Source: a virus
Taxonomy: Duplodnaviria > Caudoviricetes
Direction: 5' to 3' (one strand)
Length of the DNA: 64,000 bases
Virus record (IMG/VR): IMGVR_UViG_3300021387_000661
Location: 192,001-256,000 of that record
Shown one piece after another: positions 18,086-59,904 of this stretch (its first letter is position 1; each line of letters opens with the position of its first letter). Under the pieces are notes generated by a model. The model worked only from the letters and a program-made list of their open reading frames with translations. It ran no database searches and had not been told where the DNA came from. The translations under genes and the position numbers were made by a program.

Positions 18086-18117
18086 TTTGGATTTGTCATA
18101 AAAATGTATTATATTTG
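18086..18117 (+). promoter_or_regulatory. Bacteroidota sigmaA-type promoter (-33 TTTG, -7 TAnnTTTG)
   Basis: TTTG-N20-TATATTTG; the same arrangement recurs at 21292, 43577 and elsewhere. Confidence 0.75.
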
Positions 18118-18140
18118 TGACAGAAATAAAAGATAAAAGT

Positions 18141-18623
18141 ATGGAGATAATTGTACCAATTGGAATTTCAGGGTCTGGAAAGAGCAGACTTTATAATATG
18201 AGATACAGTGACCTTACACTTGTATCCCCTGACCTTATCCGCAAGGAACTCACTGGAAATATAAGTGACCAGAAGAAAAACAAAGAAGTATTTGAAGAGG
18301 TGGACAGAAGGGTGGCAAATCTGGTAAAGAAGGGTGAGTCATTCTTCTATGATGCAACCAATGTCAATCCTGAATTCAGGAAGAAGTTTGTTGAGCAGTT
18401 CAGAGGAACAGATGTGAAAGTCATCTATGTTGTCCTGCCAGCAGATATGCAAGTATCTTATATGAGAATCAAGCAGGATTTGAAAAACAAGGTTGACAGA
18501 AGTAAAGTACCTTTTGAAGTTCTTATCAGGCAGAAGGGATTCTACAACAAATCTCTCGAATCAAACTTTGAAGGAGAGAATGTACAGGAAATCATTTACA
18601 TTAAAGAAGGAGAATTGGATTAG
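18141..18623 (+). CDS. Polynucleotide kinase-like P-loop kinase (AAA_33)
   Basis: GISGSGKS Walker A, SPDLIR, DATN. Confidence 0.85.
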   Translation: MEIIVPIGISGSGKSRLYNMRYSDLTLVSPDLIRKELTGNISDQKKNKEVFEEVDRRVANLVKKGESFFYDATNVNPEFRKKFVEQFRGTDVKVIYVVLPADMQVSYMRIKQDLKNKVDRSKVPFEVLIRQKGFYNKSLESNFEGENVQEIIYIKEGELD

Positions 18624-18624
18624 T

Positions 18625-18885
18625 ATGAAAAAGATTTTGATATTTATTATTGGACTTATTCTTTTCTGTTCTTGTGATCAAAAGACACCACAACAGAAAG
18701 AAAGGGCAAGGTATGAATATATAAGTAGAGATTGTCAAGGCAGTGCTGAATTATTTGAATTGACATTTCCCAATGAATATGGTGAAAAAAGAACACATCA
18801 GTTTATTATAGTACATTTTTCAGACAATATGAATGGTATTGCTCACTGGCCTGACTGCAAGTATTGTAAAGAAAGAGGATTGTAA
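18625..18885 (+). CDS. Putative lipoprotein
   Basis: MKKILIFIIGLILFCSC signal peptide. Confidence 0.65.
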   Translation: MKKILIFIIGLILFCSCDQKTPQQKERARYEYISRDCQGSAELFELTFPNEYGEKRTHQFIIVHFSDNMNGIAHWPDCKYCKERGL

Positions 18886-18887
18886 TT

Positions 18888-19475
18888 ATGTACACATTAC
18901 AAATAGAAGATCCAGATAAGTTGTTTATGACCTCAGACAGTCACTTCAATCATTTCAACATCTGCAAATACTGTCACCGTCCATTCACATCAAGAAGTGA
19001 GATGGATCAGACACTCATCAAGAACTGGAATGAGGTTGTTCCTGAAGATGGTATTGTTGTCCACTGTGGAGACTTTATGCTTCCACATAATATGGGTACA
19101 AAAGAATATGAGAAATTCTGGAAAAAACTCAACTTCAAAACTCTATTACATTTGAGAGGAAACCATGACAGAATAGAATGTGGAGATTATGAATTTGAAG
19201 GTAAGACTATTATTGTAAGAGATGTTGCAATGATAGTTGTTGATGGTGTAAAGATTTATGCCCAACATTATCCTTGTGCAGCCTTCAATGGAGACTATCA
19301 TATATATGGTCATGTACATACCCTTTCTGATGGAATCTGTTATGGTATTGATGGTGATGTGAAGAAGGTTATGAAGAGAACCACTTATGATGTTGGTGTT
19401 GACCAGAACAATTATACACCTGTCTCATATTGGCAACTCTGTGACATTATCAGGAAGCAATTGAGTGAAAAATAA
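18888..19475 (+). CDS. Calcineurin-like metallophosphoesterase
   Basis: SDSH, GD, GNHD, GHVH, DVGVD motifs. Confidence 0.9.
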   Translation: MYTLQIEDPDKLFMTSDSHFNHFNICKYCHRPFTSRSEMDQTLIKNWNEVVPEDGIVVHCGDFMLPHNMGTKEYEKFWKKLNFKTLLHLRGNHDRIECGDYEFEGKTIIVRDVAMIVVDGVKIYAQHYPCAAFNGDYHIYGHVHTLSDGICYGIDGDVKKVMKRTTYDVGVDQNNYTPVSYWQLCDIIRKQLSEK

Positions 19476-19476
19476 T

Positions 19477-19656
19477 ATGGTAATTAAGTTTGAAGACATA
19501 ACTGATCAACAGTGTGCAGACATCATTGCTCATTTTGTTAAGAGGAAAAATGCAAATGAGATAATCATCCATACAAAGACAGAGGATATTGTGATAAAAA
19601 AGCAACCAAGGGTTGATGATTATTTTGATGTTATGCCTCCTATTGTTATAATATAG
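19477..19656 (+). CDS. Hypothetical protein
   Basis: Short ORF in operon. Confidence 0.5.
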   Translation: MVIKFEDITDQQCADIIAHFVKRKNANEIIIHTKTEDIVIKKQPRVDDYFDVMPPIVII

Positions 19657-19766
19657 TGTACCAATGAAAAAGGGTTAGTAGTAGTGTCCTGAAGTCAGTA
19701 ACCCTGAGATAATATCAAAATCAACGGTAAGACGTAGATGAGCTGTAGTCAGGACTTTGGTACACT
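19655..19766 (+). ncRNA. Candidate pseudoknotted ncRNA
   Basis: AGTGTACCAA/TTGGTACACT closing stem with interleaved AGGGTTA/TAACCCT and GTCCTGA/TCAGGAC. Confidence 0.5.
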
Positions 19767-19866
19767 TTTGTTATATTTAATATAAGTTTGTCCATTCTTT
19801 CAAAATGGACTGGTGTGGGAAAGATTTGAACTCGAAAAATTATTAACAATCAAATCCCTAAAAATT

Positions 19867-21249
19867 ATGTTTATTTCAAAAAACAAAGCATTCCGTGAGG
19901 AATATTGTGCATCCGTAGTAAGGATTGGTGAAACCTTTCCTATTGAAGGTAAGGACAGGATCGTAAAGACCATTGTCAATGGATTGTCAATTGTCATTGG
20001 AAAGGATGAATTCAAGACTGGTGACATTGCTGTCTATTGTTCAATTGAGACCTGTCTGCATGAACTGTTCCTCCACCTCAACTCAATGTATGAGGACAAG
20101 GAACTCAATGCGGACCAGGAAAAAAAGGGTTATATCAACAAGCATGGTCGCATCCGTGTCATCAGACTTGGTGGTGTTCCTTCCTATGGTCTTCTCATCC
20201 ATCCTTCATCTATTGCAACCTTCATCAATGAACCTGTTGAAGATGTTGTTAAGTTCCTTGAAGCACACATTGGTGAGGACTTTGATGAGATCAATGGTGA
20301 GAGGTTCTGCCAGGTCTTTGTACCTCCAGTAAAGTGTTCCAACCAGCCTGGTTCAAAGGCTGAAAGACTCAAGAAGAAACTTGACAGGTTCAAGATGCTT
20401 ATTGAGGGTTCATTCAGACTTCATTATGATACCAGCCCTCTTGCAAAGAATATGAGGGACATTAATCCTGATGATGAAGTGTACATCTCTGTGAAGGTGC
20501 ATGGTACGTCTGCGATTTTCGCAAACATTCTGACCAATGTTCCTACCAACTGGTTCAAGAGAATGTGGAGGAAGTATGTAAGGCATACTAATGAGTATGA
20601 CCAGAAGTACAACCTTGTCTATTCTTCAAGGACTGTCATCAAGAATGAGTATATCAACAAGAAGCAGAAGCCTGGTGGATACTATTCTGATGATGTGTGG
20701 GGATACTGGGGAAAGAAGTTGGATGGACTTATTCCACAGGACTACTGCATCTATTGTGAAATCGTTGGTTTTACACCAAATGGTTCTCCTATCCAGAAGG
20801 GTTATGACTATGGTTGTACCCATGTGGCAGAAGAGAAGTCCAAGTTGATGGTTTACCGTGCCACCAAGGCGGGTAAGGAACTTGAAATCTCTGAAGTCAT
20901 TAAGATTGGTGAAATGCTCAAGGAGAAGTTGGGTGACATCATTATGCCTTTCCCTCTTCTTTATTATGGAACACTGCATGACCTTTATCCTGATGTAGAT
21001 GTCCAGAACCACTGGCATGAGAATGTCCTTGAACTCTTGAAGACTGAAAAGAAATTCAAGATGGAAGAAATGGAACCTCTTTGTAGGACTAAAGTTCCAA
21101 GAGAGGGATTTGTTCTCCGTAAGGGTAATGACCCTGTATCAGAAGCCTGGAAGTTAAAGTGCTTCAAGTTCCTTGAAAAGGAAAGGGCTCTGATGGATGC
21201 CGGTGAGGTGGATATGGAAATGGAAGCAGGATACACAGAAGGTGCTTAA
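19867..21249 (+). CDS. RNA ligase (DRB0094/Rnl5-like) with N-terminal OB-like domain
   Basis: Motif I KVHGTS, CEIVG, REGFVLR, WKLK. Confidence 0.8.
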   Translation: MFISKNKAFREEYCASVVRIGETFPIEGKDRIVKTIVNGLSIVIGKDEFKTGDIAVYCSIETCLHELFLHLNSMYEDKELNADQEKKGYINKHGRIRVIRLGGVPSYGLLIHPSSIATFINEPVEDVVKFLEAHIGEDFDEINGERFCQVFVPPVKCSNQPGSKAERLKKKLDRFKMLIEGSFRLHYDTSPLAKNMRDINPDDEVYISVKVHGTSAIFANILTNVPTNWFKRMWRKYVRHTNEYDQKYNLVYSSRTVIKNEYINKKQKPGGYYSDDVWGYWGKKLDGLIPQDYCIYCEIVGFTPNGSPIQKGYDYGCTHVAEEKSKLMVYRATKAGKELEISEVIKIGEMLKEKLGDIIMPFPLLYYGTLHDLYPDVDVQNHWHENVLELLKTEKKFKMEEMEPLCRTKVPREGFVLRKGNDPVSEAWKLKCFKFLEKERALMDAGEVDMEMEAGYTEGA

Positions 21250-23890: not shown

Positions 23891-24226
23891 ATGAAGAAGA
23901 TTATATTTATACTTATTTCACTTTTATGTCTGTGCTCTTGTACTCATAACTATAAATGTGTTGTGAAATATGAGATATCTTATCCAGATACATCCTGGGT
24001 AAATGTTTATGAATTTGATGGTGTTAAGGAGGCATTTGCAAAGGTGTATACAGCATCAATATATAAAACCTTATTTGTGTATCCGAATGGACATACAAAT
24101 ATAGGAAGATATGAAATTGCAACTACCCCAGAAGGTAACTCAAAAATAACCATACTTGATTATAAGATGTATAAGTATGGTATAGATATTCCAAAAAAGA
24201 AAAGTAATGAAGAGAGAAGATTTTAA
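23891..24226 (+). CDS. Putative lipoprotein
   Basis: MKKIIFILISLLCLCSC. Confidence 0.6.
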   Translation: MKKIIFILISLLCLCSCTHNYKCVVKYEISYPDTSWVNVYEFDGVKEAFAKVYTASIYKTLFVYPNGHTNIGRYEIATTPEGNSKITILDYKMYKYGIDIPKKKSNEERRF

Positions 24227-25625
24227 GGAGATAACAAAATACATTGGAAGTATCATTAAGGGTACTTCCTTTGATGGTCATGTCTATACTGTAGGCGGAT
24301 CAGTTCGTGATTTTTATATGGGTAATGACATCAAGGACATTGACCTGGTTATTGACTTTCCTCACGGTGGTGTGGATTTTGCCAATTGGTGTAAGGAACA
24401 GGGATACACCAAAACTGTGGTCATATATGAAACATATGGTACTGCAATGTTCAAGTTCAAGCAGTATCCTGATGAGGAAATTGAATGTGTGATGACAAGG
24501 GGTGAGAAGTATCTTGATAAGGATTCAAGAAACCCTGTGACTGCATTTGCAGATATCAATGAAGATACAATCAGAAGAGACCTCACCATCAATGCCCTTT
24601 ATTATAACTGTTCTACTGGAGAGATTCTTGATTTAGTGGGTGGTCAGGAAGACATAAAGAATCACATCATCAGAACTACCAATACTGACCCTGATGTGGT
24701 GTTTGATGATGATCCGCTGCGAATCCTTCGTATCGTAAGATTTGCTACAAGATATGGATGGGAGATTGAGAAAAAGACATACAAGTCTATGAAGAAGTAT
24801 GTCAAGAGACTCAGGATCATCACCAAGGAAAGAATCCAGGCGGAGTTCAACAAGATTCTGATGTCTGAAAATGCAGTAATGGGTATCAATATGCTCCATG
24901 ATATTGGTGCAATGACATTTATTGTTCCTGAATTTGAGAAGTGTTATGGCCTCAAGCAGAATGCTTATCATTTTGGTGATGTTGCTGAACACACCCTTGC
25001 TGTCCTTGACTATCACTGTAAACATTTTGATGCAGATTTGACTGAAAGACTTGCTTGTTTCCTTCATGATATTGGAAAGACTGCAACCAGGACTGTAAAG
25101 GATGGAAAGGTTCATTTCTATGATCATGAGTATGTGGGTGCAGTAATGATTGATGACATTCTCAGGGCACTGAAGTATGACAATAACACTATCAAGGAAG
25201 TTCAGTTTCTCATCAGAAACCATATGAGGACTAAGCAGACTGGTGATGGTGCAAAGTATATCAAGGATAAGACTCTCAACAAACTCCTTTATGAGTGCGA
25301 GACTTTTGAGAGGTTCAAGTCTCTTATGAGAATTATAGAGTGTGACAATGAGGCACATGCAAAGGATTGCTGCATTCACAACCAGTATGAAGGACTGGTC
25401 AAGAGAGTGGAGTCTGATGAGAACCATATGAAGATGTTTAGTTACAAACTCCCTATCACTGGTGAGGACATTATGGAAGTCCTTGACATCAAACCAGGAC
25501 CGATCATTGCTGAAATCAACAAAAGACTTCTCAACCAGGCATTTATGGATCCTGGAATCACAAGGGGAAGATGTATCCAACTTCTTCCAGGTATCAAGAA
25601 ACAAGCAGAACAAGTTGTAAAATAG
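24207..25625 (+). CDS. cca: CCA tRNA nucleotidyltransferase with HD domain
   Basis: VGGSVRD, DIDL, RRDLTINA, DDPLRILR, ERI, HDIGK. Confidence 0.9.
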   Translation: MKREDFKEITKYIGSIIKGTSFDGHVYTVGGSVRDFYMGNDIKDIDLVIDFPHGGVDFANWCKEQGYTKTVVIYETYGTAMFKFKQYPDEEIECVMTRGEKYLDKDSRNPVTAFADINEDTIRRDLTINALYYNCSTGEILDLVGGQEDIKNHIIRTTNTDPDVVFDDDPLRILRIVRFATRYGWEIEKKTYKSMKKYVKRLRIITKERIQAEFNKILMSENAVMGINMLHDIGAMTFIVPEFEKCYGLKQNAYHFGDVAEHTLAVLDYHCKHFDADLTERLACFLHDIGKTATRTVKDGKVHFYDHEYVGAVMIDDILRALKYDNNTIKEVQFLIRNHMRTKQTGDGAKYIKDKTLNKLLYECETFERFKSLMRIIECDNEAHAKDCCIHNQYEGLVKRVESDENHMKMFSYKLPITGEDIMEVLDIKPGPIIAEINKRLLNQAFMDPGITRGRCIQLLPGIKKQAEQVVK

Positions 25626-43830: not shown

Positions 43831-44028
43831 CACAAAACATAAATTTATTTTGATATTTGAAAAATTTATGTTATATTTGTAATACACGTACCCAGGTTGA
43901 GATAAATTTTGCAAGAATTTATAATATAATTACTGATTCCCTGGGTTTTAAAATCCACAATGGCAGATGCGCACAGTCCCGGAGTGGTTGAGTGAGGAGG
44001 ACTTGCAATAACCTCCAAACAAAAGGAA

Positions 44029-44102
44029 GTCTTGTAGTTTAATGGTAGAATGCCTGCCTCGAAAGCAGGAGATGGATGCAGGGTTCGAATCCCCCCAAGA
44101 CA
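44029..44102 (+). tRNA. Atypical tRNA-Ser(CGA)-like
   Basis: CCTGC-CT-CGA-AA-GCAGG arm; weak T stem and no Ser-type variable arm. Confidence 0.45.
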
Positions 44103-44127
44103 ACAAAGTTAGTTCATTGAAAATATT

Positions 44128-44293
44128 GCCCTGGTGGTGGAATGGTAGACACGAGGGACTTAATTAGCAGAGTAAACTGTCTTAAAAAATCTTGTTTGGA
44201 AAATATAGGAACTTTGACAGGTTCAAATCCTGTTTCCAGACCAATCCCTTGGCCTGCAAGGCCTTGCGGGTTCGACTCCCGCCCGGGGCACCA
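44128..44293 (+). tRNA. tRNA-Leu(TAA) with 79-nt tRNA-like insertion (44164-44242)
   Basis: AGGGA-CT-TAA|insert|AA-TCCCT; long variable arm; encoded CCA. Confidence 0.85.
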
Positions 44294-44355
44294 ACATAGT
44301 TGATTCTGACTGTTGTCAGACTTGAGGTTAATGACAGGACCTTCAACTATTAAAT

Positions 44356-44434
44356 GCGGGTGTATCGCCACTGTCTTATACACAGTCATTAACAGCGTAA
44401 TTGGTGTATGGGGGTTCAAGTCCCTCCACCCGTA
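44356..44434 (+). tRNA. D-arm-less tRNA-Ile(TAT)-like
   Basis: GCGGGTG/CACCCGT acceptor, ACTGT-CT-TAT-AC-ACAGT, long variable region, T arm. Confidence 0.6.
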
Positions 44435-44447
44435 CAAGCTTATTTGA

Positions 44448-44625
44448 AACAGCACTGGTACAAGGATCCATACCAGTAAAGATGAGATGGTAGCGCTGAA
44501 GTCTACGAACCTTAACAGGAAGTATCCGGATTCAAACTCCTGTCCTGTGTTACGGAACCAGTCTGGGTCACCAGGGTTTAATTGGGATGGAAACACCCAA
44601 GGAAGAGAAACCACCTTATGCTGTT
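44448..44625 (+). ncRNA. Candidate structured ncRNA
   Basis: AACAGCA/TGCTGTT closing stem with internal hairpins (CTGGTA/TACCAG, TTGGG/CCCAA). Confidence 0.4.
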
Positions 44626-44629
44626 ATAT

Positions 44630-44701
44630 GCTTCCATAGGTCAACGGATAGACTGACTCTCCCCTAAAGAGTAGATACATGTTCAATTCATGTTGGGAGT
44701 A
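44630..44701 (+). tRNA. tRNA-Arg(CCT)
   Basis: ACTCT-CC-CCT-AA-AGAGT. Confidence 0.85.
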
Positions 44702-44713
44702 CAAAACATAAAT

Positions 44714-44787
44714 GGCCCCTTAGCTCAGCGGATCAGAGCAACAGCCTTCTAAGCTGTGGGTCCTGCGTTCGAATCGCAGAGGGGTCA
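44714..44787 (+). tRNA. tRNA-Arg(TCT)
   Basis: ACAGC-CT-TCT-AA-GCTGT. Confidence 0.95.
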
Positions 44788-44885
44788 CAAAAAAAGTTTA
44801 AAAGATAATGAGACAGTATAAACATAAACAGTAGTTGTGTTGGTATCATCCAGAAAGATGAGACCAACCAAGTCATATATGGAAA

Positions 44886-44960
44886 GGTCTCGTGGCGCAA
44901 CTGGATGAGCGCACCTGTCTTTTAAACAGGGTGTTATGGGTTCGAGTCCCATCGGGACCA
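44886..44960 (+). tRNA. tRNA-Lys(TTT)
   Basis: CCTGT-CT-TTT-AA-ACAGG. Confidence 0.92.
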
Positions 44961-44969
44961 CAAGGTATT

Positions 44970-45042
44970 GGCCTTGTAGCTTAGATGGTAGAGCACCACC
45001 CTTTTAAGGTGGGAGTCGTGGGTTCGAGCCCCACCGGGGTCA
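44970..45042 (+). tRNA. tRNA-Lys(TTT)
   Basis: CCACC-CT-TTT-AA-GGTGG. Confidence 0.92.
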
Positions 45043-45267
45043 CAAAGATTAAAGTTTGAAATATATGGGTGGCTTGCATGCAGTTCTTGATAAGTCAGAT
45101 ATAGTACTTACTGATACTGTCTTGAACCAGAGTAAAAAGACCGGTACCTGATTGCAATAAGTTCCCACCCACCCTTTACCTGACAGGTCGAGCGTGATAT
45201 GGTCGCCTGTATTCACCAGACGTGGAGAAGAGACATTGAAACTCTGTCAGGTTTTTAATAGATTATT

Positions 45268-45624
45268 ATGGAAAAGAAACCAAAGATAAAGTGGAAGAAT
45301 TTTAAAATCTGGATCAAAGACCAGTTCAAGAGGAAGACCTGGTTCAGAAACTTTTTCATCACTGGGAATGCCTGGGGAGGGTTCAGTATCAACTCTCACA
45401 TCAACCAACATACAGGTGAACCAAAGATAACATACAATCATCTTGAATCCGCCCAGAAGGCTGCTGACAAGATGGGACAGAAACACAACACACACTTCAG
45501 TGTTTACAAGTGTCTTTACTGTGATGGTTATCATATTGGAAAGAACAGGGAGAACAAGACAGATTATGACAAGAAGGTAGTTACAAATGTTGAAGTAAAA
45601 GACAAGACTTTAATACTTAAATAA
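45268..45624 (+). CDS. Hypothetical zinc-binding protein
   Basis: VYKCLYCDGYHIG. Confidence 0.65.
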   Translation: MEKKPKIKWKNFKIWIKDQFKRKTWFRNFFITGNAWGGFSINSHINQHTGEPKITYNHLESAQKAADKMGQKHNTHFSVYKCLYCDGYHIGKNRENKTDYDKKVVTNVEVKDKTLILK

Positions 45625-45625
45625 G

Positions 45626-46078
45626 ATGAACACACTTGAAAATACAATTCAGAAGGATCTGGTTCAGGCAATGAAGAACCATCAGGAACACACTGTTGCA
45701 GCATTGAGGTCTGTTAAGACTGCCATTATGGAAGTGAAGACCGCTGCCAATGGTAAGAAGGATTTGGAAGATGGTGACATTGTGAAGATCATCCAGAAGT
45801 TAGTTAAGCAAAGGAAGGAGAGTATGGACATCTATTCCCAGGCAGGTAGGCATGAACTTGCAGACAATGAGCAGCAGGAGATGTTTGTGTTGATGAACTA
45901 TCTTCCAAAGATGCTCACTGAATCAGAGGTGGAGGAAATTGTTGTGAAGACGATCGCAGACCTTGGTGCAACCTCAATGAAAGATATGGGAAAGGTGATG
46001 GGATTCATCAATAAGACTTATGCTGGACAGGTGGATGGTTCTATGGTATCAAGAATTGTTAAATCTAAATTAGGATAA
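45626..46078 (+). CDS. GatB/YqeY domain protein
   Basis: KQRKES...Y.QAGR.ELA..E, YLPKML, DMGKVMG. Confidence 0.92.
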   Translation: MNTLENTIQKDLVQAMKNHQEHTVAALRSVKTAIMEVKTAANGKKDLEDGDIVKIIQKLVKQRKESMDIYSQAGRHELADNEQQEMFVLMNYLPKMLTESEVEEIVVKTIADLGATSMKDMGKVMGFINKTYAGQVDGSMVSRIVKSKLG

Positions 46079-46079
46079 T

Positions 46080-46271
46080 ATGGCAAAGTTTGTTGTTTAT
46101 GCTCATGACAAGACTGATGTAGAATCAAATCTCATCTATGTATGTACCTGTGACACCAAAAATATGGCAAAGAGTATTACAAGTGCTATGAGGTTCAGGG
46201 ATTCCGGTGGAAGGAATGATGGGTCGGGTTTATATGATTATTATGTTAGAAAAGAAGATTGGATAGTATGA
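46080..46271 (+). CDS. Hypothetical protein
   Basis: ORF track. Confidence 0.55.
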   Translation: MAKFVVYAHDKTDVESNLIYVCTCDTKNMAKSITSAMRFRDSGGRNDGSGLYDYYVRKEDWIV

Positions 46272-46495
46272 AAACCTGGATTATAGTTTTAGCAATTGTA
46301 TTTGTTGTTTTAAAGTTAGTTCAGCGGTTTCTTGCAAACTATATCAGAAATGACAGATTGGAAAGTGTAAAATACTACTTTCTTGATGGTGCAACAACAC
46401 TTGGGGTGATACATGGACTTGTTTCTTTATTTTGTATATTGGTTGGTTGTACAGATTTGATTTTATTGTTTATTTATTTGTTGAATTTAGTATGA
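46268..46495 (+). CDS. Small membrane protein
   Basis: Two hydrophobic segments. Confidence 0.55.
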   Translation: MKTWIIVLAIVFVVLKLVQRFLANYIRNDRLESVKYYFLDGATTLGVIHGLVSLFCILVGCTDLILLFIYLLNLV

Positions 46496-46983
46496 AGAAT
46501 ATAGCATTGGTTGCCCATGATGGAAGAAAGAAAGAATTGATGGAGTGGGTAAGGTATAATTGGGAAACTCTTTCAAAGCATAATTTATATGCAACTGGTA
46601 CAACTGGAAAATTGATTAGTGGTATTGAAGTGGATCTTGGATTTGGTGGTGGAGAAGGAGTTTATAGGAGACAGATTGAGTATCCTTTGAGGAGTAAAGT
46701 AACATGTCTCAAATCTGGTCCACTTGGTGGAGATCAACAGATTGGAGCAATGATTGCAGAAGGAAAGATAGATGTATTGATATTTTTCTGTGACAATCTC
46801 ATTACACAAGGTCACCAGACAGATGTGTCTGCACTTACCAGACTTGCATCACTTTATAATATTGCATTTGCAACAAACAGGACAACTGCTGATATGATTC
46901 TTACATCACCATTGTTCAATGATGAAAATTATAAGATGATTGTTCCTGATGTGATTGAGAAATATAAAAACAGACAAATTTAA
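46492..46983 (+). CDS. mgsA: Methylglyoxal synthase
   Basis: IALVAHD..K, LYATGTTG, SGPLGGDQQIGA, H..DV.AL.R. Confidence 0.93.
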   Translation: MKNIALVAHDGRKKELMEWVRYNWETLSKHNLYATGTTGKLISGIEVDLGFGGGEGVYRRQIEYPLRSKVTCLKSGPLGGDQQIGAMIAEGKIDVLIFFCDNLITQGHQTDVSALTRLASLYNIAFATNRTTADMILTSPLFNDENYKMIVPDVIEKYKNRQI

Positions 46984-47081
46984 TAAAAACATAAATATTT
47001 TTATCTGGGATTTGGAAAATAAAATATTTTTTGTTATATTTGTATTGTTATTCAGAAAGAGTTCTTTGAATTTAGAAATAT

Positions 47082-47400
47082 ATAGGTCTTGTTGATGCTT
47101 TCAGGAAAGACTGTAGGACAAGGGTTCGAGTCCCTTCAGGTCCACAAATAAACACACTTAAGTCATCGGAGTACGCCTCTGTAATGATTGAGGAATTCAC
47201 TAAACGGTGTGGAAAATCAGGTTGAGTAGGCTTCGTATCTCAACCAACTTTGGGCCTGCCTGGTTTTGACTGCTTTTGAGTATGGAGAGTGGAGAGGTCT
47301 ATTGCCAATAACTGGCAAAAACAACGGTTTCTCTGTAAACTTTGGCCCTGTCGCACAGACAGCTACTCCAAAGGCTATGGTTGCTTTCGCTTAATTGCAG
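47082..47400 (+). ncRNA. ssrA: Circularly permuted (two-piece) tmRNA; tag (A)GKNNGFSVNFGPVAQTATPKAMVAFA*
   Basis: T arm and CAGGTCC-A (ends 47144) precede GGGCCTG-CCTGGTTTTGAC (47252); G3-U70 pair; ATAACT-GGC resume site at 47314; stop at 47394. Confidence 0.88.
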
Positions 47401-47505
47401 GCTTGAACATAGTAGATCTTTCACCAGGTGGATGATCCAGAGGGTTTCTCATTCCATCTTTCCAAATAAGATGGATACTTTGAAAGTTCTTTATAATAAA
47501 TATTT

Positions 47506-47681
47506 GGCCAGGTAGCTCAGCTGGTTTAGAGCAGCGGACTGTATAAGGAGTGGTTTACCGAAACAAACCAATCTGGTATAGTTTAATGGCAAAATGCCTC
47601 GGGTCGTAGATGATGGTGGTTCGATTCCACCTACCAGATCTAATCCGCGGGTCGTGGGTTCGAGTCCCTCCCTGGCCGCCA
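47506..47681 (+). tRNA. tRNA-Asn(GTT) with 98-nt tRNA-like insertion (47543-47640)
   Basis: GCGGA-CT-GT|insert|T-AA-TCCGC; G73 discriminator; CCA. Confidence 0.8.
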
Positions 47682-47683
47682 AA

Positions 47684-47763
47684 GTACATAGGATGTAAGT
47701 GCACACATATGTTGGGTTCGGGTATGATTAACCCACAGAGGTTTGAGTCCTCTCTATGTACCA
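47684..47763 (+). ncRNA. tRNA-like element (acceptor plus T arm, no canonical anticodon arm)
   Basis: GTACATAG/CTATGTAC; AGAGG-TTTGAGT-CCTCT. Confidence 0.55.
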
Positions 47764-47800
47764 AATATAAGTTCTTTGAAAAATAAAAACTTCATACAAT

Positions 47801-48071
47801 GGAGGAGTGGGAGAGTGGTTTATTCCAGCGGTCTTGTTAATTCGAGTGCTTCCAGAGGAATCTGGAAAGTAGAATTCCCCTAATTCGGTGGAACCTTAAC
47901 AGGTAATGCTGATGGTAATACCGAGCCAATGTTTAAAGACAGTGTGTAGAGACTTTACAGGGAACATCCAGAACGGATGAAGATAAAGTCCAGACCACAA
48001 TATGAAAGTAATGTGTGTAAGGAAAACCGCCGCTCCGAAAGGGGCCGTCGGTTCGAATCCGGCCTCCTCCG
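47801..48071 (+). tRNA. tRNA-Ser(TGA) interrupted by a group I intron
   Basis: GCGGT-CT-T|intron|GA-AA-ACCGC; long variable arm; G73. Confidence 0.88.
47836..48021 (+). mobile_element. Group I intron (186 nt, no ORF)
   Basis: Follows U and ends in G; P AATTCGGTGGAAC, Q AATACCGAGC, R GTGTAGAGACT, S AAGATAAAGTCC. Confidence 0.88.
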
Positions 48072-48259
48072 CTAAATATACAAATTTCAAAAAAGTTTGT
48101 TATATTTATTAAGGTTTTGTTATGTGTTTGTTTGTTTAAAGATTCATACCGCAACAATTAAAAGCTCAAACTGATAATTTGATTACTTTCTTTTGAATCT
48201 TGTTTTCTTTAACAAACATAAATTTAACCAGGCTTTTATAAACAATTAATAATTAAAGT

Positions 48260-48886
48260 ATGAAGAAATTTTTAGTATTTCTTATGAGTATTATGCTCAT
48301 GATTGGTGTGAGTGCATGTACTTGCTCCCAGCAGAAGAAAACTTCTGAACTAAAGGCTGGTGAACTGGTTGTTGAGAATGTCATCTCCCTTGACCGTCAG
48401 GCAATGAACCTTGCACATGGTGGTAATTACAGGTGGTTTGAGACTGGTGTTCAGCTCAAGAACTTCCTTGATGAGGAAAATGATGGTACCATTGATTTGG
48501 TTGTCAATGTTTTCCAGGTAGTTGAGGAGTATGATTCTACAAGTTTTGATACCTTTGTTTACAAGTATCAGCACTTCTCTGATGGTTCATTTAATGAGGA
48601 AGGTGTTCATGGTTTCTGGGTTGAAGATTACCCTCTTGAGAATGAAGCAATCAAGGTAACCTTCAAGGAAGCTTTTGAAAAGGTCCAGGAAGTTAATCTC
48701 CCTAAACCTCACACCCGTCAGGTAGTATTGAGGAAGCAGGTTGGTCCTGTTGAGGCAAATCCTCAGTGGATTTTTGGTAACCTCCATTCACAGATTTATG
48801 TTGATGCTGTGACTGGTGCAGTTTCAAAGGACAATCCTGCATTCAATGGTCTCAATCTTGGTACACCTCTTGGTGAATGGCCTTAA
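48260..48886 (+). CDS. Putative lipoprotein (PepSY-like C-terminus)
   Basis: MKKFLVFLMSIMLMIGVSAC lipobox; IYVDAVTGAV. Confidence 0.7.
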   Translation: MKKFLVFLMSIMLMIGVSACTCSQQKKTSELKAGELVVENVISLDRQAMNLAHGGNYRWFETGVQLKNFLDEENDGTIDLVVNVFQVVEEYDSTSFDTFVYKYQHFSDGSFNEEGVHGFWVEDYPLENEAIKVTFKEAFEKVQEVNLPKPHTRQVVLRKQVGPVEANPQWIFGNLHSQIYVDAVTGAVSKDNPAFNGLNLGTPLGEWP

Positions 48887-48967
48887 TAGAAATCGGTGAG
48901 GTAGTTAGTTTTGCACTCTCGTCATAAATAAAATGCAGACTTGGCAATCTGGAACAGACAGATATTA

Positions 48968-49092
48968 CTATGATGTGACAAGGAAGTGGAATACTTGCGC
49001 CACGAGATAATATCAGATGGAGGAAAGAGGAAGGGTTCTTCGTAAAAGTTGCCCAATAGGGAATGGAGGTTCGAGTCCTCCCATCATAGCCA
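48968..49092 (+). ncRNA. Enlarged tRNA-like element ending in CCA
   Basis: CTATGATG/CATCATAG; GGAGG-TTCGAGT-CCTCC. Confidence 0.55.
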
Positions 49093-49097
49093 AACAT

Positions 49098-49172
49098 TGC
49101 GGGGTAGACTGGAGAGGTTCCAGCCCGGTCTCATAAGCCGGTCCACGTGGGTTCGAATCCCACCCACCGCTA
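49098..49172 (+). tRNA. Initiator-type tRNA-Met(CAT)
   Basis: CCGGT-CT-CAT-AA-GCCGG; 1:72 mismatch. Confidence 0.75.
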
Positions 49173-49177
49173 CTAAA

Positions 49178-49226
49178 TGCCAGTATAAGACAGTATATAT
49201 GTAAGTTCAACTCTTACTATTGGCGC
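49178..49226 (+). ncRNA. tRNA minihelix (acceptor plus T arm only)
   Basis: GCCAGTA/TATTGGC; GTAAG-TTCAACT-CTTAC; 15-nt linker. Confidence 0.55.
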
Positions 49227-49324
49227 AAAAAAATACAAAATATTTTCATAAATATTTGGATATTTCAAATTTTTTTGTTATATTTGTATTGTTAAGTTCT
49301 TTGATAAATATTGTAAAAATATAA

Positions 49325-50170
49325 GGGTGGGTTTCTCATCCTTCCTGTATCCTTCGGGAGAAAGGAGAAAGATAACCAGTGAATACATAAGCTGGGAAAG
49401 TCAGTGTGGCGCAATCTTGCCCCTGGCGGAGGAGTTTTCCTCTCTACAAGAAAACCAAGGCAGTCAGCATATCCTGGAATGGCAGGACACTGTGAAAGGG
49501 ATATGCGGGGGTTCTTACCAAGTCTCCTTGAGTGGTAACACTGACAAGTGCTGTTTTGCTTCCAGACAAGAAGATTACCAGTCTTATGGTTTGGATGACC
49601 AAAGTTTATTGATGTCCAAAAGGAATTACCAGATTCCTCTAACAGGTGGTGCTGAGATCAGAAATGGTTGGATGTTAGAATGAGTAGAATGAGTAACACA
49701 GCGGTGTGTGAAAATAGAAAGGCGATGTATCTAACCCTCTCAAAAGGAGGCAGGATAGCAAGGGCAACCTCGTCTTTCAAATGGTAGAGTGCTAAATGAT
49801 TCATTAAAGATTATGACCAAAATGATCAATAAAAAATTATTAAGCAAGCAAAAGTGTTGCCCACACTACAGGACAATATGGTTATGCTTCTGTGATATGA
49901 AGCCTTATGGAACTCGCAAGGTGAAGTAAGAGTATTGTAAGTAGGGACAATGCAAGAGGAGGCATCCTCTTAACTCGGCAGAGGTCTTTGGCTTGAACAC
50001 ATCTATATAATGTAGTGTAGTGACTGTGGTAGTCTTGGTGGAAACACCATAAATCCATCCATATCCTCCTTACCAGTAGCGATGCTGGTGTGTATAAACT
50101 CTGGGCGACCAGGGCTTGTCCTGAAAGGGAAGAGAACAGGAGGCGATTAGGGTCAACACTCAGCCCCAAT
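49325..50170 (+). ncRNA. Giant structured ncRNA, GOLLD-like
   Basis: About 850 nt of GC-elevated, gene-free sequence after a promoter inside the tRNA array; many hairpins; ACAGGTGGTGCTG, GCAAAAGTG and 3' CTCAGCC motifs recalled from GOLLD-like RNAs (not verified). Confidence 0.55.
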
Positions 50171-50397
50171 CAAACAAAAATTTATTCAGTGTCAGTAACC
50201 AGTCTGGTATGGAAGAGCGAGACTTCCCCGAATAACAAAAGTCATTTCATAAAGGTACAGAACCTCTGCGAAATAGAACCACAAGGAGGGTTTTCCAAGG
50301 CCAGGGACTTGACTTGAAACATACTTTCTTGGGTTCTAAAGGAAGTTGAAGAGTGAGTTTGCATTCAGTCTATGAGTGGTTTTATCTCTTCATCCAT

Positions 50398-50472
50398 AGT
50401 GCGTTAGTTCAGCCTGGTTAGAATGCCACACTGTCACTGTGGAGGTCACGGGTCCGAATCCCGTACGCACTG
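50398..50472 (+). tRNA. tRNA-Asp(GTC)
   Basis: CCACA-CT-GTC-AC-TGTGG; G73. Confidence 0.92.
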
Positions 50473-50706
50473 CAAATGGTAAAGAACCATACCGCAACAT
50501 TTGAATGAAATACATTTTTGGGTTATGTAGCAATTTTGGTTCTTGTTTTTCCTTGTTTAGCAAAACAAGGTGGTGGAGTTGGGTGGAAACACTGTCCTCT
50601 GTGAGTGGTAATCTCACATAAATAACTTACCATTTATTTTGAAATTTTAATTTACATAAATATATTAGAAAGTAATTTACATAAATACTTTAAAAGAATA
50701 AAAATT

Positions 50707-50829
50707 ATGATGACATTGCATACACATATGGTATTTGCTGCTATTGCAGGTAAGCCAGGTTGCTACCGTTTTTGGGAACAACTCGGACAGAAGGGTGTGT
50801 GTATGTCATCTGAAAATGAAAAACAATAA
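50707..50829 (+). CDS. Leader peptide 2 (MMTLHTHMVFAAIAGKPGCYRFWEQLGQKGVCMSSENEKQ) of putative tRNA-array attenuator
   Basis: 40-codon ORF after tandem TTTACATAAATA; contains 19 of 20 amino acids. Confidence 0.7.
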   Translation: MMTLHTHMVFAAIAGKPGCYRFWEQLGQKGVCMSSENEKQ

Positions 50830-50923
50830 GTGGAGACCATTATAGGAGAAAGGTTAAAACTTAAACAAATATAGAAGAACGACATCTCACACAAATCACA
50901 AAAAGGTTTATGTGAGATTTTTT
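50709..50923 (+). promoter_or_regulatory. Attenuator 2: protector GATGACAT-T-GCATACA/TGTGTGT-ATGTCATC, antiterminator with GACATCTCACACA, terminator ATCTCACA...TGTGAGAT-TTTTT
   Basis: Mutually exclusive pairings; first tRNA begins about 10 nt downstream. Confidence 0.7.
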
Positions 50924-50932
50924 AATTTATAT

Positions 50933-51008
50933 TGGGTAGTGCGGTAGTTGGTCACCGGCTGCATTTGGGATGCAGACATTCACGCAGGTTCGAGTCCTGT
51001 CTACCCAA
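50933..51008 (+). tRNA. tRNA-Pro(TGG)
   Basis: CTGCA-TT-TGG-GA-TGCAG. Confidence 0.85.
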
Positions 51009-51018
51009 CAAAGTGAAT

Positions 51019-51093
51019 GGGCTGGGTAGTGTAATCTGGAAGCACATCACTCTGGCAGAGTGAAGGATGGGGTTCAAATCCCCCCTGTGTCCA
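51019..51093 (+). tRNA. tRNA-Ala(GGC), irregular acceptor stem
   Basis: TCACT-CT-GGC-AG-AGTGA; G3-U70. Confidence 0.75.
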
Positions 51094-51115
51094 CAAAGAT
51101 AATAAAACAAAGTTT

Positions 51116-51358
51116 ATGGAGACACTCAAACAGATTGTAAAAGGTAGTGCAAAATTGGACTGCATCAAGAGTGGTGGTGTTGCTGAATACATCATTACAT
51201 CAGAAAGCAACAACAAATATATGTTGGAAATAGATTTATCTGATAAAGTTGATTGTGGAGAGAGTGCATCATTTATGCCTTTTTATGAGAAAGCTATAAT
51301 TCTTATGCGATGGATTCGTCGTGCGATGGATAAAGGTGAATTAATTGAACTTTGTTAA
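51116..51358 (+). CDS. Hypothetical protein
   Basis: ORF track. Confidence 0.65.
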   Translation: METLKQIVKGSAKLDCIKSGGVAEYIITSESNNKYMLEIDLSDKVDCGESASFMPFYEKAIILMRWIRRAMDKGELIELC

Positions 51359-51420
51359 AAAAATACTAAAAGATTTGGAAGTTTCAAATATTTTTGTTAT
51401 CTTTGCAGTAGAAAATAAAT

Positions 51421-51495
51421 GCTGGGATATCTGCTAGTGGTCCAGGCGATGTGCCTTTCAAGCATGTGACACGGGTTCGAATCCCGTTCCCAGTA
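51421..51495 (+). tRNA. tRNA-Glu(TTC)
   Basis: TGTGC-CT-TTC-AA-GCATG. Confidence 0.8.
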
Positions 51496-51654
51496 CAAAG
51501 GAGTGAAGGGAAAATCCAACCAACACTTCACATAGAGCGAAACAGAACCTGATAATGATTCCTGCTGAAGGATAAGGCAAGGTGAAGATAGGGGTTCAAT
51601 GAGGTTGAAATGATGCATGCTCAAAGTAAACAATATATAATGCTCGACAATTAT

Positions 51655-51732
51655 GGAGCTGTCGTATAGGTGGTTATTGTACAATGGACTGAAAATCCAT
51701 AGGCAGTGGTTCAACTCCACTCGGCTCCACCA
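51655..51732 (+). tRNA. tRNA-Phe(GAA)
   Basis: ATGGA-CT-GAA-AA-TCCAT; CCA. Confidence 0.9.
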
Positions 51733-51940
51733 AGGTTTGGTGTAAGGTGACTTGCATTGATGAGAGTAAATGAAGATAGGATGAATGATCAACATCCAAA
51801 AAGAAATGAAATCATCTAAAGTCAAACCAATGAAATCATTACAGATACTAGTCAATGTAGTGAGGAAATTGCAGAGGCATTTAGCACACCTGTCTATGTC
51901 ACAGGTGATTCATAAGCAAGTAAAGTGAGACCTTGACCTC

Positions 51941-52022
51941 CGGGATGTGCTGGAACTGGTAGACAGACCAGACTAAGGATCTGGTGCTGCAAGGCGTGAG
52001 GGTTCGAGTCCCTCCATCCCGA
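51941..52022 (+). tRNA. tRNA-Leu(AAG)
   Basis: CCAGA-CT-AAG-GA-TCTGG; long variable arm. Confidence 0.88.
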
Positions 52023-52182
52023 CTTGATGTAAAAAGACGTTAAACCTTGTGGGAGTTAGTCTTCTCCCTTGTGGGATAATGGTGCCGGCATCATAGTAGA
52101 TTGCCAAGGAAACTGCCCGAGTCAGCGGGGTCTGAACAGTGGGGTTCGATACCCTGGGCACCATCAAAAAAGTTCTTTGATT

Positions 52183-52255
52183 GTCTCTGTAGCTCAATTG
52201 GTAGAGCACCTGACTCTTAATCAGGGGGTTCCGAGTTCGAGCCTCGGCAGGGACA
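52183..52255 (+). tRNA. tRNA-Lys(CTT)
   Basis: CCTGA-CT-CTT-AA-TCAGG. Confidence 0.95.
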
Positions 52256-52430
52256 CAAAACAAATGCCGGTTTATCACAGTATATTGGTGACTGTGGCTG
52301 CCCTGTACAGGTGGGTTTGACTTCAAGTGAAAGTATACAGCTCGAGACAATGTATATGAGTAAAGGTCAGATATGGGTTTGGTTCGATTCCCCCGATGGC
52401 ACAAAGTTCTTTGAATTGTTATATTTAAAT

Positions 52431-52507
52431 GGGCCGGGTAGTGTAAAGGTTTAGCACGTCACACTTGCACTGTGACAGAGGGGTTCGAATCCCACCTGTG
52501 TCCACCA
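52431..52507 (+). tRNA. tRNA-Ala(TGC), irregular acceptor stem
   Basis: TCACA-CT-TGC-AC-TGTGA; CCA. Confidence 0.75.
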
Positions 52508-52608
52508 CTTATTACCATATTATCTTTCAGAGAAATGGTTGACTAAAACTCGCAGACTCATCCGGTAATTGGTTGTAAAAGTGCAGTTAAAGGTTAGATG
52601 AGTATTTT

Positions 52609-52682
52609 GGGCTTGCATGTACCAAGGTTGGCGGAACTCCCTTGCAAGGAGATCGTGGAGGGTTCGATTCCCTTCGGGTCCA
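52609..52682 (+). tRNA. tRNA-Ala(TGC), atypical D arm
   Basis: CTCC-CT-TGC-AA-GGAG; GGGCTTG/CGGGTCC. Confidence 0.7.
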
Positions 52683-52757
52683 CAAAACAGGTGAAGTTGT
52701 CATACATATAAGCCTGTTTCACAAGTTCAGAAGGTGATGCATACACACTGACTTGTC

Positions 52758-52916
52758 GGCATATGAGAGTGTCGGAGACACACAGAAGTGGAAACCACAT
52801 TCAGGATTGAATTGAAGTGCAAATAGATTCTTTCTGTTAGGATGAAGGTCTGCCGGACACAAAGCTCGCCAGGAAGATTACCCTGGAAATACTTGGTTCG
52901 ACTCCAAGATATGCTA
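52758..52916 (+). ncRNA. Enlarged tRNA-like element
   Basis: GGCATAT/ATATGCT; CTTGG-TTCGACT-CCAAG; internal GTGTCGG/CCGGACAC. Confidence 0.5.
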
Positions 52917-53037
52917 CAAAATCACAGAGTGCCCAGAGCATTGAAGCATTGAAGGTATGATGCTTTTGAACAAGTTTGAACCCTGTAATCGAAAGAGGGC
53001 AATGCAGCAAGCAATACTTTGTGAGATAACAACTTTT

Positions 53038-53111
53038 CTATGGTATCATATAGAGGTTAGTATGGCGGTCATTCAGTGCTGCAACAGAGGTTCGATTCCT
53101 CTTACCATAGC
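53038..53111 (+). tRNA. Atypical tRNA with 8-nt anticodon loop (identity unclear)
   Basis: TATGGTA/TACCATA; GCGGT-CATTCAGT-GCTGC; good D and T arms. Confidence 0.5.
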
Positions 53112-53118
53112 AACATTT

Positions 53119-53210
53119 GGGTAGGTAACGGCGCTGGACTGTAAATCCAGTCTGAACACAAATTGTCGTATTGGCCTTGCAGTAAGGGGGTTCGAGTCCC
53201 TCCCTACCCA
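53119..53210 (+). tRNA. D-arm-less tRNA-Tyr(GTA)-like
   Basis: GGGTAGG/CCTACCC; CTGGA-CT-GTA-AA-TCCAG; long variable region. Confidence 0.6.
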
Positions 53211-53217
53211 CACAAAT

Positions 53218-53291
53218 GCGGAGTTAGTTCAACGGTAGAATGTCAGCCTTCCAAGCTGAATATGAGGGTTCGATTCCCTTACTCCGCTCCA
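53218..53291 (+). tRNA. tRNA-Gly(TCC)
   Basis: TCAGC-CT-TCC-AA-GCTGA; CCA. Confidence 0.95.
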
Positions 53292-53376
53292 AACTGTGGG
53301 TGTAGTGTAATATTATAGATTCAGCACACAGGGGATACCCTGGAATGATGGTATGAAATCCATCCACTCATAACAT

Positions 53377-53451
53377 ACCGATGTAGCTCAGTTGGTGGAG
53401 AGCGACAGATTCATATCCTGTAGGTCATTGGTTCGAACCCAATCATCGGTA
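53377..53451 (+). tRNA. tRNA-Met/Ile2(CAT)
   Basis: ACAGA-TT-CAT-AT-CCTGT. Confidence 0.8.
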
Positions 53452-53464
53452 CATATAATTAAAA

Positions 53465-53635
53465 ATGATATTATGGATAACTGTGGGGCTAAAAGAGTAT
53501 CTGTTTAATGAGTGGAAATATAATGTACACAAAAGATACTTGAAATACTTTGATGAATGGTATGACAATCTTCTGGATTCCCAGAAAGAATTTTACAAGA
53601 GTTGGATGGAAGGGTATATGAGTCCATATCATTAG
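53465..53635 (+). CDS. Small hypothetical protein (56 aa)
   Basis: Manual translation MILWITVGLKEYLFNEWKYN...; below the ORF-track cutoff. Confidence 0.5.
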   Translation: MILWITVGLKEYLFNEWKYNVHKRYLKYFDEWYDNLLDSQKEFYKSWMEGYMSPYH

Positions 53636-53664
53636 GTCTTTGAAATGTTGATTATGAATTATAT

Positions 53665-53755
53665 AGGTCGGTGGCCGAGTGGTTGAAGGCGGCGGTCTCC
53701 AAAACCGTTAGGATATTTTGAAAAATCCTCGAGGGTTCGAATCCTTCCCGGCCTG
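53665..53755 (+). tRNA. tRNA-Trp(CCA) with long variable arm
   Basis: GCGGT-CT-CCA-AA-ACCGT; AGGAT/ATCCT extra arm; G73. Confidence 0.8.
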
Positions 53756-53763
53756 CTTAAGAT

Positions 53764-53835
53764 TGAGGTATGGTGTAATGGCCAGCACCTTGGATTTTGG
53801 TTCCAATAGTCCAGGTTCGAATCCTGGTACCTCAA
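53764..53835 (+). tRNA. tRNA-Gln(TTG)
   Basis: TTGGA-TT-TTG-GT-TCCAA. Confidence 0.93.
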
Positions 53836-58750: not shown

Positions 58751-58905
58751 GCCGAGGTAGCTTTAATGGTAGAGCACCTGACTTCTACAGATTTATCCAC
58801 TGTGACGGATATTGGGTAATATGGGAGAAGAAGTCAACTTTTACGTCCGAAGCGTAAGTTATCCACGTAATCAGGGGGTTGCAGGTTCGACTCCTGTCCT
58901 CGGCT
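58751..58905 (+). tRNA. tRNA-Thr(TGT) with 82-nt tRNA-like insertion (58785-58866)
   Basis: CCTGA-CT-T|insert|GT-AA-TCAGG (a CGT reading is possible if the junction is shifted). Confidence 0.85.
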
Positions 58906-59752: not shown

Positions 59753-59904
59753 GCCGGAGTAGCTTTAATGGTAGAGCATCTGACTTCTACAGAGTGGTTT
59801 CTGAAATAAACCTTGGGTAGAATGGGAGAATGATTATACAAACGTCCGAAGCGTTATCTACTCACGTAATCAGAGGGTTGTCGGTCCGAATCCGGCCTCC
59901 GGCT
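59753..59904 (+). tRNA. tRNA-Thr(TGT) with 79-nt tRNA-like insertion (59787-59865)
   Basis: TCTGA-CT-T|insert|GT-AA-TCAGA. Confidence 0.85.

Follow-up and report, generated by a model that had tools for sequence, protein, structure and literature searches.

The window (the whole stretch of 64,000 nucleotides that was analysed) comprises bases 192001-256000 of an IMG/VR virus record of 344,746 bp with an estimated completeness of 94%. The window phage is present in DNA runs from gut samples of ruminants and other animals. About 40 tRNA genes and a tmRNA, all on the + strand, are found at 43.7-63.1 kb of the window. Since the array holds a tmRNA, the host is bacterial. All the Asn, Thr and Leu-UAA tRNAs called in the 345-kb genome are interrupted, including the only tRNA-Asn(GUU) of the phage. 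The features described below are collected in the Table. Genes for a YqeY/GatB-like protein and for a protein with an MGS-like domain are located between the tRNA blocks. Two stretches of the array are covered very deeply by RNA-library contigs from several studies (word depth to 1568 and 966, respectively) and have neighbours of low depth; they may be abundant non-coding RNAs.

Table. Features of the tRNA-Asn locus, the related introns and the RNA-processing genes, in window coordinates.
Feature	Position	Strand	Remarks
P-loop kinase (AAA_33)	18117-18623	+	Pfam; cassette total 18117..21249
Calcineurin-like phosphoesterase (metallophosphoesterase)	18888-19475	+	Pfam; same cassette
RNA ligase, PHA02142 OB domain	19813-21249	+	Pfam; same cassette
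CCA-adding enzyme with HD domain	24207..25625	+	Pfam PolyA_pol, PolyA_pol_RNAbd, HD
Odd 77-nt tRNA	44028-44104	+	ARAGORN Ser-cga
tRNA-Leu(UAA) intron	44164..44242	+	site 36|37; 15-nt linker and true T arm
YqeY/GatB-like and MGS-like domain protein genes	45626-46983		between tRNA blocks
tRNA-Asn(GUU), exon 1	47506..47542	+	acceptor 5' strand, D arm, anticodon stem 5' strand, loop C32 U33 G34 U35
Asn intron leader	47543..47570	+	28 nt; starts AUA (family N-U-A); hairpin S2 and putative pseudoknot S1
S2 of the Asn leader	47552-47556 with 47565-47569	+	loop ACCGAAAC
tRNA-shaped domain	47571..47639	+	Rfam tRNA 44.8 bits; ARAGORN 'tRNA-???'
Closing stem	47571-47578 with 47632-47639	+	8 bp
Inner D arm	47581-47595	+	
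Truncated inner anticodon arm	47597-47610	+	14 nt where 17 nt are expected
Inner T arm	47615-47631	+	GGTGG-TTCGATT-CCACC
Terminal C	47640	+	single, unpaired; 9 nt past T stem; 3' splice site directly after
tRNA-Asn, exon 2	47641..47681	+	U36 A37 A38, anticodon stem 3' strand, variable loop, T arm, acceptor 3' strand, G73, encoded CCA
Free-standing tRNA look-alike	47684-47766		8-bp stem GUACAUAG/CUAUGUAC, true T arm, then C
tRNA-Ser(UGA)	47801-48072	+	186-nt group I intron after U34
Stretch deep in RNA-library contigs	49364-50170		word depth to 1568
Stretch deep in RNA-library contigs	56992-57339		word depth to 966
tRNA-Thr(UGU) intron	58785..58866	+	site 34|35; GGGAGAA/CGUCCGAAGCG elbow form; R1 88.1 bits
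Second tRNA-Thr(UGU) intron	59787..59865	+	leader hairpin GAGUGGUUU/AAACC as in Asn intron; R1 80 bits

The Rfam tRNA model scores 48.6 bits on 47506-47678 and places a 101-nt insertion in the anticodon loop. The exons read GGCCAGG-UA-GCUC...GAGC-A-GCGGA-CUGU and UAA-UCCGC-GGGUC-T arm-CCUGGCC-G-CCA, and the class-I body, the anticodon GUU, A37 and the discriminator G together give the identity Asn. The insert (47543-47640) is 98 nt long and lies between U35 and U36 (35|36) of the otherwise canonical tRNA. Its removal restores the anticodon loop, and its limits are confirmed by the exact gap of an intronless allele, that of the 411,604-bp contig L165. Alternative limits, with the C kept in exon 2 or the first intron nucleotide (N1) kept in exon 1, produce anticodons that clash with the Asn, Leu and Pro bodies, and they also clash with the intronless alleles.

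The insert is present in independent data. Contig L004 (IMGVR_UViG_3300031993_000018), from a different metagenome, has a tRNA-Asn intron at the same nucleotide, which refutes the assembly chimera considered in an earlier, sequence-only reading of this DNA. The gene order of L004 is that of the window: tmRNA, tRNA-Asn with intron, free-standing tRNA look-alike and tRNA-Ser-UGA. The Asn intron is also covered by a Logan DNA contig over 44917-47945 with one difference, and both Thr introns are spanned by other Logan DNA contigs, although the run may in both cases be the source sample. A search of GenBank phages with 47000-48500 did not find a similar tRNA locus; a 163-nt stretch at about 47838-48000, inside the intron of the downstream tRNA-Ser(UGA), matches two 735-kb phages. 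That intron is a compact group I intron without an ORF, which scores 42.9 bits (E 6.9e-10) against Rfam RF00028, with the gathering score of 50 not reached. Two unrelated intron types, the Asn intron and then this one, are located 160 nt apart.

The leader of the family to which the Asn intron belongs is an H-type pseudoknot, in which intron nucleotides 4-6 pair with the loop of the next hairpin, as follows from covariation across 28 sequences. The middle pair of S1 is G-C in 16 of them and A-U in 9, U2 is always paired with a loop purine, and S2 has double changes at all 5 pairs. The covariation score of the leader is 0.474 against 0.269 +/- 0.021 for shuffled alignments, 0 of 500 of which reach it, and partners slid along the sequence give at most 0.155. 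The invariant nucleotides near the 5' splice site are U2, A3 and the loop A. In the Asn leader S1 would be formed by only G48-C58, G47-C59 and U44-A62 (475xx numbering) and be weakened by the A46.G60 mismatch, which could impair the window copy. The same S1 variant, AAGG/CCG, recurs in the L004 Asn and L115 Arg introns, and the L100 Lys intron is compensated (AAGG/CCU). The leader hairpin that the sequence-only reading assigned to both the Asn intron and the Thr intron at 59787, GAGTGGTTT/AAACC, is indeed present in both (GAGUGGUUU/AAACC). The Asn leader hairpin is like that of the second Thr intron and unlike those that lead Asn introns elsewhere. When the whole genome was scanned by regex and pairing for pseudoknot leaders that stand free, there were 92 hits versus 102 expected by shuffling; a scan as loose as this is uninformative save for the three known introns.

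Downstream of the leader comes the second module of the intron, a tRNA look-alike that makes up its remaining 70 nt. The acceptor-like stem, the D arm, the perfect T arm and the scrambled anticodon arm described earlier from the letters are all found in the sequence, and the pair A47571:U47639 extends the TCTGGTA/TACCAGA stem outward. On its own the segment 47572-47639 reaches 44.8 bits (E 4.2e-9) with the Rfam tRNA model RF00005, for which the gathering score is 29. The acceptor, D and T arms align with the model and 8 nt replace 11 central positions of the anticodon arm. ARAGORN assigns it a 2-nt anticodon. The inner element of the window has neither the 5-bp anticodon stem nor the 7-nt loop nor the usable anticodon of a functional decoder, and in the explanation that we favour it is a structural handle, not a decoding tRNA.

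Related elements stand elsewhere in the array. Among the tRNAs of the window, the one closest to the inner look-alike is the odd 77-nt tRNA called by ARAGORN as Ser-cga yet lacking a long variable arm; they have the D arm and the variable region in common and 53 identical aligned positions. Directly after tRNA-Asn there is a free-standing tRNA look-alike with the design of the 3' module of the intron and without the pseudoknot leader. It is kept in L004 (9623-9711) and is absent at this place from L165.

The family comprises 29 distinct introns in tRNAs of 10 identities (Thr, Val, Arg-CCU, Arg-UCU, Gly, Lys, Asn, Asp, Leu and Pro). Its members were collected by pattern scans of IMG/VR and JGI metagenome contigs and come from large phage contigs and rumen/gut contigs. 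The covariance model R1, built from 20 members of the elbow form, found further ones, including those with whole inner cloverleaves. R1 matches the Asn intron over its full length (26.3 bits, E 4.5e-4 with E-values being rough, model positions 1-82). The family is limited to a few related lineages of megaphages. IMG/VR scans for the leader, for the linker form, for the leader with GGGAGAA and for the Asn leader returned nothing beyond members already known or chance hits in coding DNA. A stretch of the GC-rich 27-kb contig L038 (4301-4392, R1 34.8 bits) was left out of the family, as its elbow motif GGGAGAA/CGUCCGAAGCG apparently lies outside a normal anticodon loop. Homologues at other tRNAs, the absence of which was to speak against the sequence-only reading, exist, and they have a common plan and leader.

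The members obey common rules. All 29 introns have U at nucleotide 2, A at nucleotide 3 and C at the last position. Pairs 2-6 of the closing stem are likewise formed in all 29, with 4-6 pair types each, and the pair adjoining the terminal C is formed in 27 of the 29, as U-A, A-U, G-C, C-G or U.G. Nine introns have a canonical T arm, and in each of them the T stem is exactly 9 nt away from the 3' splice site. The Asn intron conforms, with 8 bp in the closing stem (6-8 being expected), a canonical T arm, C at its last position and the distance of 9 nt. The insertion sites vary within the anticodon loop from 34|35 to 36|37, and removal by the family rule always leaves a 7-nt loop in which position 37 is a purine and the anticodon suits the body of the tRNA.

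The 3' module ranges from a bare hairpin to a whole cloverleaf. In its commonest form an invariant GGGAGAA is followed by a hairpin and by CGUCCGAAGCG, which make the elbow; another form consists of a 15-nt linker and a true T arm; the L004 Asn, L098 Asp and L111 Lys introns have whole inner cloverleaves. The smallest member is the 63-nt intron of tRNA-Arg(UCU) in L115 (3582-3644), the 3' module of which is a 9-bp hairpin with a 16-nt loop, so the full elbow may not be strictly required. The 3' modules are freely exchanged, from which it follows that the module serves by its shape, a stem that stacks on a T-arm-like elbow. That all members descend from tRNA genes is plausible; the GGGAGAA ... 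CGUCCGAAGCG form could equally be a mimic that has arisen separately.

The Asn locus is found in three states. In the first one, that of L165, there is no intron: the exons, placed behind the same tmRNA end, are identical to those of the window at 73/75 positions, the gap in the alignment coincides exactly with 47543-47640 and the neighbouring letters permit no sliding. A scan for the joined Asn exon junction found it uninterrupted in 30 other phage contigs, L165 among them. In the second state, that of L004, the intron at the same site is 121 nt long and holds a complete class-II cloverleaf, called by ARAGORN as tRNA-Ser(aga). The third state is that of the window, the 98-nt intron of which is shorter by 23 nt. 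The absent nucleotides correspond to the 3' half of the anticodon arm and the long variable arm, and the D-arm region has diverged. The leaders of the window and L004 are alike at about 35/37 positions by eye. The closing stem and the T arm are homologous between the two and differ by compensatory changes, U-A against C-G in the closing stem and G-C against U-A in the T stem, and the anticodon arm of the inner element is not conserved.

This comparison overturns the view that the window insert is the least-derived member of the family, since its L004 orthologue has the full class-II cloverleaf of which the window copy lacks 23 nt. A complete inner cloverleaf is also present in the L098 Asp intron. 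The window copy looks like a trimmed derivative of an L004-like cloverleaf rather than a primitive form. The exons of the window are closer to the intronless L165 (73/75) than to L004 by eye, whereas the intron leader matches L004. Such disagreement between the histories of exons and intron is as expected of gain by transfer or of precise loss. Moreover, the L004 genes for tRNA-Leu-UAA and tRNA-Ser-UGA (9729-9819) lack the introns present in the window, the gap in the former being exactly 44164-44242. The proposed movement of the inserts between host tRNAs holds up in that the family occupies many host tRNAs with a common leader and that its presence varies at one locus of related phages. Mobility or turnover between phage tRNA genes is supported by these comparisons.

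The Asn intron belongs to a published but unexplained class, first described from the tRNAs of Lak megaphages. Devoto et al. 2019 (PMC6784885; Fig. 4, Table S6) reported 'tRNAs with highly conserved introns' in these phages, called them enigmatic and noted 'no hit in rfam'. Like the introns of the window, they lie in the anticodon loop of megaphage tRNAs, are about 80-115 nt long and have no Rfam match. The Phe intron of Lak A1 (Table S6) starts with UUAACAGAGUAAACUGU and the Leu intron of the window with UUAGCAGAGUAAACUGU, so that the leaders are nearly alike; the Lak intron also ends with a T arm, 8 nt and C, in line with the family rule. The Lak 'Tyr-GTA' gene appears better read as Asn-GUU split at 35|36, like that of the window. 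The 2019 paper has no structure model, pseudoknot, splice-site rule or mechanism, and its intron limits come from tRNAscan in eukaryote mode (PMC6784885). The later papers found in the literature merely mention Lak-type introns, and none of those found deals with their structure or removal. The window phage, of about 345 kb, is distinct from Lak, and its Asn intron has a truncated class-II look-alike.

Group I introns of bacterial and phage tRNA genes are similar to the Asn intron in their location in the anticodon loop, in the lack of an ORF and in their patchy presence. They are recognized by a conserved catalytic core, a terminal G and a U that ends the 5' exon. The Asn intron, unlike them, is 98 nt long, has no group I core, ends with C instead of G and gives no RF00028 match at E up to 10; at this threshold the Asn and Thr introns have only tRNA matches in Rfam. 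Archaeal and eukaryal introns, with their bulge-helix-bulge motif and the EndA/Sen and RtcB/Trl1 enzymes, resemble the route proposed below in that they are cut and ligated while the halves are held by the tRNA body. However, no bulge-helix-bulge is seen by eye in the Asn intron, and the genome has neither an EndA domain nor RtcB. The third comparison is with tRNA look-alikes with a reduced anticodon arm that signal to RNase P and RNase Z, namely mascRNA at the MALAT1 3' end and the punctuation of mitochondrial transcripts by tRNAs. Such handles serve as a working analogy for the inner element. Unlike the Asn intron, they mark transcript ends, are not followed by re-ligation, do not lie in an anticodon loop and have no pseudoknot leader.

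The indirect case that the Asn intron is spliced out is good. Five pairs of the outer acceptor stem differ between the window and L004 and all of them still pair, four by double changes (3:70, 5:68, 6:67 and 7:66, by eye). The outer tRNA stems hold their pairing through double substitutions, which points to selection on the outer tRNA and implies that removal of the intron is required. Contigs of one DNA run and of three metatranscriptome runs were searched over 44000-60000; they returned many cross-mapping bacterial tRNAs and showed a joint at none of the introns and no usable ends.

The phage encodes a kinase, a phosphoesterase and an RNA ligase in a three-gene repair cassette that is ordered like the domains of bacterial Pnkp. 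The OB domain of the ligase weakly matches structures of Naegleria RNA ligase (E 0.004), and with Pfam RNA_ligase it does not reach the cut-off score. Homologues of the ligase are present in three other large intron-bearing records (G001, G003 and G005). That of G001 (C1 26361-27773) has two in-frame TAA codons, which may indicate stop-codon recoding. Jumbo phages commonly carry such repair cassettes against anticodon-nuclease damage (PMC7824862). The presence of the cassette is therefore not specific evidence: it shows capacity and is not proof of splicing. The phage genome contains no RtcB, no metallo-beta-lactamase of the RNase Z type and no EndA-type domain (PF01974); a search of the phage with T4 Rnl1 gave no match either, but carries no information, since its control matched in no genome. 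The phage also encodes a CCA-adding enzyme, a role of which in the fate of the intron is speculative.

We suggest the following route of removal. Both cuts would be endonucleolytic and would be positioned by the tRNA-like shape of the intron itself. The 3' cut would be made at a fixed distance from the T-loop elbow, as by an enzyme of tRNA 3'-end processing (RNase Z logic). The canonical site of RNase Z is after N73, 8 nt past the T stem; the cut in the Asn intron is after the ninth nucleotide, one beyond it. The 5' cut would be made just upstream of the pseudoknot, one nucleotide before its first pair. If RNase P recognized the look-alike, its cut would fall where the closing stem begins, about 28 nt downstream of the 5' site, and exon 1 would keep the leader of 28 nt. 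A cut by RNase P at the 5' site itself, with the pseudoknot as an acceptor mimic, was considered and set aside, as the expected cut is one nucleotide off. After the cuts both exon ends would be held together by the folded tRNA body, and they would then be healed and joined by the kinase-phosphoesterase-ligase cassette of the phage into normal tRNA-Asn.

In our best explanation the insert is a true intron of the Lak type, led by a pseudoknot and tRNA-shaped, with the cuts set by its shape and the ends sealed by the cassette, and it is mobile or often lost and regained. We give this joint explanation an even chance of being right. A stronger form, in which the intron mimics pre-tRNA, the end-processing enzymes of the cell measure from the T-loop elbow and excise it from the anticodon loop of the other tRNA, and the phage cassette rejoins the halves, would be a third way of tRNA splicing; we put it forward tentatively, as possible but doubtful.

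The cuts might also be made by the intron. In this alternative, which we regard as unlikely, the pseudoknot leader is a small ribozyme that cleaves its own 5' edge, or the whole intron splices itself; the tRNA-like part is a scaffold, and the phage cassette heals and seals the 2',3'-cyclic phosphate and 5'-OH ends. The invariant U2, A3 and loop A, counted as unpaired in this account, adjoin the 5' splice site, and the kinase and phosphoesterase next to the ligase are the enzymes which such ends require. Ribozymes of the HDV or hatchet type mark the cut at their own 5' boundary whatever the upstream sequence is, and the leader would behave in the same way. However, neither the Asn nor the Thr intron matches any Rfam ribozyme family, hammerhead, twister, pistol, hatchet and HDV-like ones included, even with E allowed up to 10. 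The leader is only about 27 nt long, and the S1 mismatch is tolerated in the window copy. The elbow is swapped for real T arms or cloverleaves, which argues for recognition of shape rather than for a catalytic core.

To a dedicated endonuclease of the phage we assign the same low likelihood as to the ribozyme. Such an enzyme would cut one nucleotide outside both helix ends, between exon 1 and the N1 that precedes S1 and between the C that follows the stem and exon 2, and the phage ligase would join the products. It would account for the symmetry of the sites, each of which is one unpaired nucleotide away from a helix end, and the limitation of the family to a few related megaphage lineages is what dependence on a lineage-specific protein predicts; no function is known for most genes of these phages. 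Nevertheless, the search found no candidate gene and no archaeal-type splicing endonuclease domain, and the tRNA mimicry is left unexplained unless the enzyme derives from a tRNA-binding protein.

Less likely still, the insert is not spliced at all, being either a selfish insertion that kills the tRNA gene or a carrier that releases the look-alike, for example as a decoy for host defences that target tRNAs. The free-standing look-alikes with the same 8-bp stem and C in the spacers, such as that after tRNA-Asn, are in line with this, as are a second, uninterrupted tRNA-Asn in L004 and the lack of spliced RNA in the metatranscriptome contigs, which are uninformative. It is opposed by the outer stems, which pair through the four double substitutions between the window and L004, and by the exons, 73/75 identical to the intact L165 allele. 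Every Asn, Thr and Leu-UAA gene of the genome would be affected, and the boundaries always restore a 7-nt loop with an anticodon that fits the tRNA body.

To our knowledge, AGA and AAC, the 'anticodons' of the complete inner cloverleaves, are not used by bacteria. That the inner element is a working tRNA gene nested in another tRNA, an idea raised in the Lak paper for a Thr intron (PMC6784885), is highly improbable: the Rfam tRNA threshold is passed and the inner cloverleaves of L004 and L098 are complete, but the window copy lacks both the 5-bp anticodon stem and the 7-nt loop, and most members have only an elbow or, as the 63-nt L115 Arg intron, a bare hairpin.

The three-state Asn locus is an unusually clean natural experiment, in which the splice sites are fixed to the nucleotide. 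The comparison of the three states marks the anticodon and variable arms as dispensable, and the leader, the closing stem, the T arm and the terminal C as the parts that are kept. An observation of 2019, until now unexplained, is hence turned into precise constructs for biochemistry. We know of only two established routes of tRNA splicing: self-splicing of group I introns in bacteria and organelles, and a protein endonuclease with a ligase in archaea and eukaryotes. The Lak-type family fits neither of them, yet it interrupts tRNAs that the phage evidently still needs. If the third way of tRNA splicing put forward above is true, the maturation of key phage tRNAs would depend on the enzymes of the phage.
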